This document shows, piece by piece, positions 60,370-61,012 of a stretch of DNA of 64,000 nt (positions are counted from its first letter, which is position 1; every line of letters starts with the position of its first letter). The position numbers and the translations under genes are program-made. The notes beneath the pieces are model-generated. The model saw only the letters and a list, made by a program, of their open reading frames with translations, made no database searches and was not told the origin of the DNA. Source of the stretch: Escherichia coli (GTDB lineage: Bacteria; Pseudomonadota; Gammaproteobacteria; Enterobacterales; Enterobacteriaceae); the NCBI RefSeq assembly GCF_030384885.1, contig NZ_CP128613.1. One strand, written 5' to 3'.

Positions 60370-60404
60370 TAAAAATATAACCTCAAATAAAAATGCTGCT
60401 GTTA

Positions 60405-60422
60405 GTTTTTCGTAAGAAAAAC
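60405..60422. other. candidate oriT inverted repeat (gtttttc-GTAA-gaaaaac)
   Basis: 7-bp perfect arms 36 bp upstream of relaxase start; architecture recalls RSF1010-type oriT. Confidence 0.35.
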
Positions 60423-61012
60423 TTTGGGGTTGACGTTGACCTTGGTTTTGCTTTTAGCCTGCGGCAGCAACCGTCGGTAGACCCCACACACTGCGTAGCA
60501 GTGTATAGGTGGGCATTGTCTTTAAGAAAATAAGCCAATGTAAAATGCCCCTCTTAATAATCAATACGAAATATATGTATGGTTGTAAAATAATACGCCG
60601 GGTTAAGCGGCGCAAACTGGATTAAAGGTGTAGGTTTCACGTCTGCAGGACAAAAAGAGTAAAGAAAAGGCCCGTAAGGGCAAAAGAAGTATTAATTATT
60701 CCCGCCGTAAGGCGGGATAGCGTTAATTGAAGAAAAAAGCTAATAAAACACGGAGTGTTATGTGTTGCACAATTCACAGGTTGAGGTGGAGAAATAGAGT
60801 TAAAGTTGACAGGTGAAAATAAAAGCACGAATGCGCAAAAATAAGTAACGCGTAGAGTGCGGGGTATTTTAAGTTAGTAATTACTATCACATGTGTTGCA
60901 CTATTTTATTTATGGACGTTCCAGAACTATTTTCTTTGACAAAACGGTGTAAATTTGACGTTATTCATCTTTGTGATAATTAAATACGTATAAACAACAA
61001 GAGGTGATAACT

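Follow-up and report, generated by a model that had tools for sequence, protein, structure and literature searches.

A strand-specific array of DNA mini-hairpins in the predicted origin of transfer of a serU-type mobilisable island of Escherichia coli

The 64,000-nt stretch of Escherichia coli DNA considered here (NCBI RefSeq assembly GCF_030384885.1, contig NZ_CP128613.1; hereafter the window, its given strand being called the + strand) is low in G+C from about 44 kb on, beginning directly after a tRNA-Ser(CGA) gene at 43794-43883. Within this segment, a gap of 643 bp (60370-61012) separates the minus-strand open reading frame (ORF) 58888-60369, an apparently intact mobQ relaxase gene of 493 aa, from a small plus-strand gene at 61013-61317, a frameshifted traD encoding a Ti-type small accessory protein. 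Sequence comparison suggests that positions 60396-60860 are probably the origin of transfer (oriT) of an integrative mobilisable element of the serU-island type with a ROD21-like gene set. The most distinctive feature of this non-coding module is a strand-specific array of DNA mini-hairpins, one of which adjoins a predicted nick site.

Profile searches place the 493-aa ORF firmly among the MobQ relaxases, with 249 bits against the NCBIfam MobQ model NF041496 (cut-off 200) and an E value of 7e-54 against Pfam MobA_MobL. Its nearest solved structures are NES of pLW1043 (PDB 4HT4; E 7e-23) and then MobA of R1162 (2NS6; E 3e-9). The relaxase domain occupies residues 1-200, and Y25 together with the motif H126-D-...-N-P-H134-A-H136 is unchanged across 11 homologues; the C-terminal portion of about 290 aa contains no known domain, and a Pfam profile search detects no primase domain in the protein. 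The initial annotation of this DNA, made from the sequence alone, had likened the locus to the traA-oriT-traCD organisation of Ti plasmids. The divergent relaxase and small-protein layout of the Ti traA-oriT-traCDG region and its TraD family are indeed shared, and residues 1-262 of the relaxase align to residues 1-264 of the 751 in the TraA_Ti model TIGR02768. That alignment, however, scores only 175.9 bits against a cut-off of 590, the helicase part of TraA is lacking, the island has no traG, and this copy has no traC. On these profile scores, the protein is a short MobQ or NES-like relaxase and not a TraA_Ti relaxase-helicase.

The divergent relaxase and traD-like genes reported earlier are thus both in place, but traD is broken in the window by a 1-nt deletion. 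The deletion creates a run of seven A near 61118-61124, where two E. coli homologues read CGAAAGAAAG, and the TraD domain falls downstream of the frameshift; the window copy is either a pseudogene or the product of a homopolymer sequencing error. Assignment to the TraD family (Pfam PF06412, E 1.5e-10) was scored on an intact E. coli homologue. An NCBIfam search returned no match for TraD or for the small neighbouring ORFs.

Four short hairpins with similar loops had been described in the gap, and all four are present on the + strand. Hairpin 1 (AGTTTTTC-GTAA-GAAAAACT, 60404-60423) has an 8-bp stem, and hairpin 2 (ACACTGC-GTA-GCAGTGT, 60488-60504) has a 7-bp stem that encloses an exact mini-hairpin, GCGTAGC. 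Hairpin 3 (GCCC-GTAA-GGGC, 60670-60681) and hairpin 4 (TCCCGCC-GTAA-GGCGGGA, 60700-60717), with stems of 4 and 7 bp, lie about 160 and 190 nt 3' of the predicted nick, respectively. The stems of hairpins 2 and 3 are as first reported, and those of hairpins 1 and 4 are each one base pair longer. Perfect hairpins with a stem of at least 4 bp and a GTA or GTAA loop number 10 in the 64-kb window; the gap, expected by its length to hold about 0.1 of these, holds four. Each of hairpins 1-4 is the minimum-free-energy DNA fold of its sequence, with z scores of -3.1 to -4.4 against dinucleotide shuffles. The hairpin cluster is not a chance product.

Conservation was followed in 53 related loci, comprising 11 diverged loci taken from records of E. 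coli, Yersinia and Klebsiella, 41 more from a scan of one genome per species across about 20 Enterobacterales genera (relaxases 50-82% identical), and one further locus, L053. Nearly all of these loci share a non-coding module of about 450 bp whose parts stand in the same order and at the same spacing. Read 5' to 3' on the + strand, it consists of hairpin 1; GTTGAC repeats; an optional hairpin, GTTTCC-GAA-GGAAAC; a nearly invariant 34-nt block containing the small hairpin GTC-GGTA-GAC; hairpin 2; a block ATA(A/G)GTGGGCATTG; CAATGT; hairpin 3, at +150 to +177 from the core that follows hairpin 2; hairpin 4, at +182 to +209; TGTTGCACAATTCACAGG; a promoter-like site; and an invariant TAAGTAACG. 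The 34-nt block (TTAGCCTGCGGCAGCAACCGTCGGTAGACCCCAC, 60454-60487, with its small hairpin at 60473-60482) is the most conserved, with nearly every column invariant among 40 aligned sequences. The core itself (ATAGGTGGGCATTG, 60505-60518) is invariant in 50 loci except at 60507-60509, and hairpin 2 plus core, which in the window read CCCACACACTGCGTAGCAGTGTATAGGTGGGCATTGTCTTTAA over 60483-60525, form the best conserved non-coding sequence of the region. The direct repeats GTTGAC(G) (60429-60440) occur in two copies in the window and in one to four in relatives, and are possibly an accessory-protein site. Such a variable copy number, noted upstream of mobQ in the Pectobacterium (L031) and Prodigiosinella (L032) loci, might be shown by iterons for an accessory protein.

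A lack of the hairpins in homologous elements would have counted against the initial oriT proposal; instead, all four are kept in about 50 loci from about 20 genera, with compensatory changes in hairpins 2 and 3. Hairpin 2 occurs in relatives as ACGCTCAC-GAA-GTGAGTGT, ACACTC-GAA-GAGTGT or ACACTGC-TAC-GCAGTGT; its four stem versions are all paired, with the base ACAC/GTGT fixed and the apex compensated. Hairpin 3, found at +150 to +177 in about 43 loci, becomes GTCC-GAA-GGAC in some relatives, one compensatory pair being accompanied by a shortening of the loop from 4 to 3 nt, and in others takes the loop GCAA. In the small hairpin, GTC/GAC is replaced by CCC/GGG in 3 of the 40 aligned loci, which amounts to two compensatory pairs. 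The stem of hairpin 4 is invariant and its loop varies, with GTAA in 30 of 43 loci, GTA in 8, and GCGA, GAA, GTGA, GTTA and GCAA in one each. Hairpin 1 has an almost invariant stem, in which the sole pairing-preserving non-Watson-Crick variant is a T.G on the + strand, and loops of GCAA (24 of the 53 loci), GTAA (23), GAAA (2), GTCA (2), GCGA (1) and GTGA (1). Because its stem is invariant in sequence, hairpin 1 probably has a sequence-specific partner, and we propose it as an auxiliary oriT hairpin. For hairpins 3 and 4 an RNAalifold run was uninformative, several of its rows being cut or out of register, and hairpins were enumerated locus by locus instead.

Of the cells in the 40-sequence alignment, 99.6% pair; with the partners slid, the figure falls to 32-57%. 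Three pairs have changed on each of their two sides. The score for covariation, 0.127, compares with 0.058 in shuffles and is reached by none of 500, a contrast that the relatedness of the loci inflates. Extra-stable DNA mini-hairpins follow the rule GCGNAGC or GCGNNAGC, contain a sheared G.A pair and are closed by C:G (PMC13037366, PMC3201870); they resist single-stranded DNA-binding protein (SSB) and are found at the phage G4 complementary-strand origin and at RSF1010 ssiA as CCGAAGG (PMC13037366, PMC3201870). Hairpins 1-4 of the window all have this motif, a G-N-A or G-N-N-A loop closed by C:G. When the loops of hairpins 1, 2 and 4 and of one labelled x were collected with an unconstrained pattern, 169 of 174 read cG-N(-N)-Ag; GTCA and GTTA are among them, and 3-nt and 4-nt loops replace one another at the same hairpin. 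The non-Watson-Crick pairs of hairpins 1, 2, 3 and x are equally one-sided: all seven variants are G.T on the + strand and none is A.C.

Because both the loop type and the wobble pairs are confined to the + strand, this strand appears to fold as single-stranded DNA, as expected of a transferred strand. The hairpins, the small GTC-GGTA-GAC included, thus seem to have been selected to fold in that strand, since they share one strand and carry G-N-A or G-N-N-A loops closed by C:G. The G-T-A(-A) loop family of the initial annotation is real, but the feature its members truly share is this broader loop class on the + strand only, and hairpins 1-4 are more aptly called DNA mini-hairpins, all on one strand, the one for which nicking and transfer are predicted.

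Hairpin 2 is followed in the window by a single A and then by the core TAGGTGGG/CATT (in its longer form, A-TAGGTGGGCATT); in most relatives the same unit reads ACGCTCAC-GAA-GTGAGTGT-A-TAAGTGGGCATT, with the core TAAGTGGG. RSF1010 is nicked at TAAGTGCG/CCCT, 8 nt past its repeat (PMC4814116 Table 1), and the MOBQ nick consensus is NWACCNNTAAGTGCGCCCTYNN (PMC3832669). By analogy with the nick position of RSF1010, we predict a nick on the + strand between 60513 and 60514, at TAGGTGGG/CATT. Against TAAGTGCG/CCCT, the window core agrees at 6 of 8 positions before the nick and 2 of 4 after it, and the TAAGTGGG of most relatives at 7 of 8, a match that by itself is not above chance. A perfect hairpin of at least 6 bp followed within 4 nt by TARGTG, however, occurs once in the window, namely as hairpin 2 plus core, where 0.16 are expected. 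The comparison with the MobQ nick consensus that had been called for is weak for the core alone and gains significance only together with the hairpin and the conservation, and the case for the nick rests on the hairpin combination, position and conservation, not on the core match alone.

The resemblance in arrangement to the RSF1010 inverted repeat had originally been assigned to hairpin 1. That assignment does not hold: hairpin 1 is followed by GTTGAC repeats, and hairpin 2 takes its place as the MOBQ repeat because it alone precedes, by 1 nt, a core like TAAGTGCG. MobA is reported to contact only the base of its hairpin (PMC4814116), and the fixed base and compensated apex of hairpin 2 are the pattern expected if the relaxase reads the stem base only. 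In oriT mimics of pSK41, likewise, the repeat differs and the core is kept (PMC4993578). A resemblance to the R388-type nick ATTGTCT/AT was dropped, as GTCT is not conserved in relatives, and a full-text literature search for the core sequence returned only unrelated primers.

A close known counterpart is the oriT of pSK41 / pLW1043, GCGAACG-GAA-CGTTCGC-A-TAAGTGCGCCCT (core TAAGTGCG), which has the same 7-bp stem, 3-nt G-N-A loop, single A and TAAGTG-type core as hairpin 2 and its flank. The pSK41 relaxase gene is divergent from its oriT, which lies some 80-120 bp upstream and has its repeat on the gene-proximal side; the window has the same arrangement. Where pSK41 reads TAAGTGCGCCCT, the core here is TAGGTGGGCATT (window) or TAAGTGGGCATT (most relatives). 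In contrast to pSK41, moreover, the host is Gram-negative, the element is integrative, and at least four further conserved hairpins are spread over about 450 bp. The oriT of RSF1010, CAGTTTCTC-GAA-GAGAAACCGG-TAAGTGCG/CCCT, also matches in layout: in RSF1010/R1162, as here, a minus-strand relaxase gene, the gene-proximal inverted repeat, the nick core and a plus-strand accessory gene follow one another. The RSF1010 repeat has a GAA loop, and ssiA of the same plasmid uses CCGAAGG-type mini-hairpins as priming signals (PMC13037366). RSF1010 differs in its stem (10 bp against 7 bp), in its accessory protein (MobC, against TraD of PF06412 here) and in its MobA, which is a weaker match to the window relaxase (E 3e-9). 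Both reference oriT sequences, of pSK41 and RSF1010, were confirmed by BLAST in the plasmid collection at 100% identity. Relaxase homology, the layout shared with these two plasmids and the conservation of the module make the proposal that the gap contains an oriT very likely.

From homology and layout we infer nicking, its exact position and the direction of transfer; the parts played by hairpins 1, 3 and 4 are less certain. Under the proposed mechanism, after excision the MobQ of the island would bind hairpin 2 on the + strand, chiefly at the base of its stem, cut the adjoining single-stranded core TAGGTGGG/CATT at 60513/60514, and remain on the 5' end. Using a secretion system supplied by a co-resident conjugative element, it would then lead the + strand, 5' to 3', into a recipient, with traD, pilS and pilV entering first and mobQ last. 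At the end of the round, hairpin and core would be recognised again on the single strand and the ends rejoined. Hairpins 3 and 4, which would lie in the DNA that enters first, may act there as a priming or SSB-excluding signal for complementary-strand synthesis.

Several observations weigh against an oriT nicked at hairpin 2. Many of the loci are kin by descent, so the shuffle statistics overstate their independence. The stem of hairpin 1 is invariant and shows no covariation, and its pairing is not proven by evolution. Compared with the 12-nt MOBQ core TAAGTGCGCCCT, the window core has 4 mismatches, and matches with 3 or fewer are common by chance. The core could be an operator, or could also be one, given that the predicted mobQ promoter overlaps it and that the 15-mer of this core, TAGGTGGGCATTGTC, recurs upstream of the integrase gene in serU-type islands. 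There is a second invariant motif containing TAAGT, TAAGTAACG at 60843-60851. Finally, with its traD frameshifted, this copy may transfer poorly.

It is conceivable, if rather doubtful, that the module goes beyond a minimal oriT and that, with its five or six mini-hairpins, the part 3' of the nick is a built-in single-strand origin that directs a primer RNA. Hairpins 3 and 4, joined in one subfamily by a terminator that folds only in RNA copied from the strand, would keep SSB off; a short primer RNA would be made, and the incoming island strand would be turned duplex in the recipient. A strand-specific hairpin cluster of the kind such an origin calls for is found: it is biased to the + strand, and in about 43 loci hairpins 3 and 4 are placed 150-210 nt 3' of the predicted nick. 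The G4 origin, RSF1010 ssiA and ssoA/ssoU are likewise strand-specific non-coding clusters of G-N(-N)-A hairpins on the strand that turns single-stranded (PMC13037366). Hairpin 3 of many relatives (GTCC-GAA-GGAC) holds the CCGAAGG of ssiA, and beyond the mini-hairpin there is no similarity to ssi or sso signals. Were this extension of the oriT true, a widespread family of chromosomal hitch-hikers, occurring in about 15% of the complete E. coli genomes, would have an establishment signal fused to its oriT.

The hairpins might instead act in RNA, as part of a mobQ 5' leader, in a small RNA over hairpins 3 and 4, or as terminators, which we regard as unlikely. A consensus scan finds a mobQ promoter-like site on the minus strand at 60515-60544 (-35 TTTACA, 18 nt, -10 GACAAT). 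Both the nick core and the conserved CAATGTAAAA are overlapped by this site, whose two hexamers lie inside conserved blocks; it is a putative mobQ promoter, with a hexamer spacing that differs in the second subfamily. Read from 60544 to 60515, this site would place hairpins 2 and 1 in a mobQ leader of about 140 nt. In one subfamily of the module only, the minus strand folds at 60584-60614 into a hairpin (TGCGCCGC-TTAACCC-GGCGTA) that resembles a terminator and has a T-run after it. All four of its non-Watson-Crick variants read A.C on the + strand, that is, G.U on the minus strand, so the hairpin at 60594-60614 looks like a minus-strand terminator-like element, different in kind from hairpins 1-4. 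As it behaves like an intrinsic terminator of that strand, some minus-strand RNA probably crosses the region of hairpins 3 and 4. G-N-R-A is, moreover, a classic stable tetraloop of RNA as well, and the mobilisable island SGI1 is reported to need a small RNA from its mobilisation module (PMC9299015).

The mobQ leader and any terminator-ended RNA, however, are both minus-strand, where the loops of hairpins 1-4 read U-N(-N)-C, which is no known motif, and where the G.T pairs of the + strand become A.C mismatches. The GTCA and GTTA loops and the exchange of 3-nt and 4-nt loops suit the DNA rule and not RNA GNRA. On the + strand, no promoter is evident upstream of hairpins 1-4, and to the right of the terminator-like hairpin no conserved promoter is visible. 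Hairpins 3 and 4 were rejected as + strand terminators, neither being followed there by a T-run; in most relatives none follows on the minus strand either. A scan of 59800-61800 against Rfam at a permissive threshold gave only sub-threshold, irrelevant matches.

We consider it distinctly unlikely that the inverted repeats are duplex operators for dimeric regulators of divergent mobQ and traD promoters, with the core an operator and not a nick. The region does contain two divergent promoter-like sites, and the stem of hairpin 1 is invariant in sequence, as a protein site would be. The 15-mer of the core is repeated upstream of the integrase gene in serU-type islands, which would fit a joint regulation of mobQ and int. 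In L053 (31774-31788, E. coli 2016C-3878), TAGGTGGGCATTGTC is found again without a mismatch, 18 bp inside attR and on the strand that also carries the oriT copy; in the island of the window the corresponding position falls past the right end. The second copy is kept in about 390 E. coli genomes with a serU-type island; neither the ssrA-type relatives nor a related integrase arm at another site has it. It may serve as a common operator or as a further site for the relaxase. What duplex operators leave unexplained is why loops should begin with G and end with A on one strand, why wobble pairs should occur on one strand only, and why the apex of hairpin 2 is free to change while its pairing is kept. 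In RSF1010-type (IncQ) systems, oriT and promoters overlap. The operator reading is compatible with an oriT rather than exclusive of it, and an overlap of promoter and oriT is likely here.

That the region is an oriT nicked elsewhere, beside hairpin 1 or at TAAGTAACG (60843-60851), is very unlikely: hairpin 1 (GTTTTTC-GTAA-GAAAAAC) does resemble the RSF1010 repeat GTTTCTC-GAA-GAGAAAC but precedes a variable stretch and GTTGAC repeats of varying number with no conserved core, TAAGTAACG, unchanged in about 50 loci, has the TAAGT of the MOBQ core but has no inverted repeat 5' of it and lies directly after a promoter-like -10, and a repeat, a 1-nt spacer and a TAAGTG-type core are combined at hairpin 2 only.

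The right part of the gap contains further conserved features. An imperfect palindrome, ATGTGTTGCACAATTCACAGGT (also written TGTGTTGCACAATTCACAGG), is conserved at 60760-60781, has a partial second copy 131 bp downstream (60891-60905), and looks like an operator from its sequence. At 60814-60851 on the + strand, a promoter-like GTGAAA-18 nt-AAAAAT, read by eye, precedes the invariant TAAGTAACG, and at +317 to +351 from the core AAGTAACG hardly varies among 50 aligned loci. This segment is probably the start of the rightward traD operon, and TAAGTAACG may possibly be the 5' end of the operon transcript. A 63-aa ORF at 60637-60828 was rejected as coding, because relatives carry single-base indels within it, including the changes of loop length.

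The wider context is that of an integrative mobilisable element. The window contains the tRNA-Ser end of the island, and the integrase end lies past it. In a close E. coli relative, the same island spans from tRNA-Ser to a tyrosine integrase and is flanked by a 14-bp direct repeat, CCCTCTCTCCGCCA, which is the 3' end of tRNA-Ser and occurs both at that gene and beside the integrase. Complete homologous islands have no annotated type IV secretion genes, and no traG coupling protein is annotated in a complete homologous island; what comes after traD in the window are pilin and pilV genes. Thus the element, partly through its close relative, combines an integrase and tRNA direct repeats with a relaxase and a predicted oriT and has no mating-pair apparatus, which bears out the integrative mobilisable element suggested at the outset. 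Homologues of mobQ-traD are present in 805 of 5,426 complete E. coli genomes (about 15%), all chromosomal, and in many other Enterobacterales; related islands occupy ssrA in E. coli and Yersinia. When the region was compared by BLAST with 72,556 plasmids, none had a related oriT, the three matches being island insertions or chromosome-like records, which rules out an oriT shared with a helper as the explanation.

By its genes, which include a type IV pilin, a PilV-like protein, a MobA/MobL relaxase, TraD, an H-NS homologue, SIR2/TIR proteins, and a recombination directionality factor with a companion gene of about 840 bp, the island is to be classed with the uropathogenic E. coli (UPEC) serU island type with a ROD21-like (EARL) gene set. 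EARL and UPEC serU islands share this gene set (PMC6035254), a comparison made by description of content and not by alignment to ROD21. EARL islands are defined by a ROD21-type integrase at Asn-tRNA (PMC6035254); here the site is tRNA-Ser(CGA), and in relatives ssrA, which places the island outside that definition. Conjugative transfer has been seen for ROD21, dependent on the F-like plasmid pSLT, with its cognate oriT only postulated (PMC6035254).

The island family, the MOBQ relaxase and TraD are known from earlier work. A specialist would expect to find an oriT upstream of the relaxase, and oriT-containing regions upstream of chromosomal relaxases are listed in bulk in a 2026 preprint. In the searchable literature we found no paper that maps the oriT of these islands, its nick or its hairpins; the site is only postulated. 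Islands of the serU, ROD21-like and ICEKp258.2 types bear H-NS antagonists, TIR/SIR2 defence genes and virulence-linked cargo. A predicted nick, hairpin and strand make testable their mobilisation and the identification of helpers, the oriT-based detection of relatives that lack a relaxase, and the general idea that G-N(-N)-A mini-hairpin loops are selected on transferred strands.

Other parts of the window were noted in passing. The segment 22763-43883, about 21 kb long, holds four tRNA-Asn genes together with tRNA-Ser(CGA) and lies downstream of an apparent his operon (judged by ORF sizes); this is the asnT-asnV/serU hot-spot of E. coli for island insertion, and the core flank beside the island is 95-99% identical to nearly all E. 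coli genomes. Within the island, the minus-strand gene at 48894-49298 encodes a full-length H-NS paralogue (178 bits against the H-NS model, cut-off 211), probably the Hfp of the UPEC serU island. At 53608-55705, a SIR2-domain protein with a Dsr2-like N-terminus precedes one whose E. coli homologue carries a TIR-domain annotation, a pair that is likely anti-phage defence cargo. A type IV pilin gene (61713-62270) and a PilV-like adhesin gene (62323-63759) lie in an island without other pilus-assembly genes. PilV was discarded as a pointer to an IncI helper, its match to IncI PilV being limited to about 70 residues (338-407). The island may decorate the pilus of a helper with its own pilin and adhesin.

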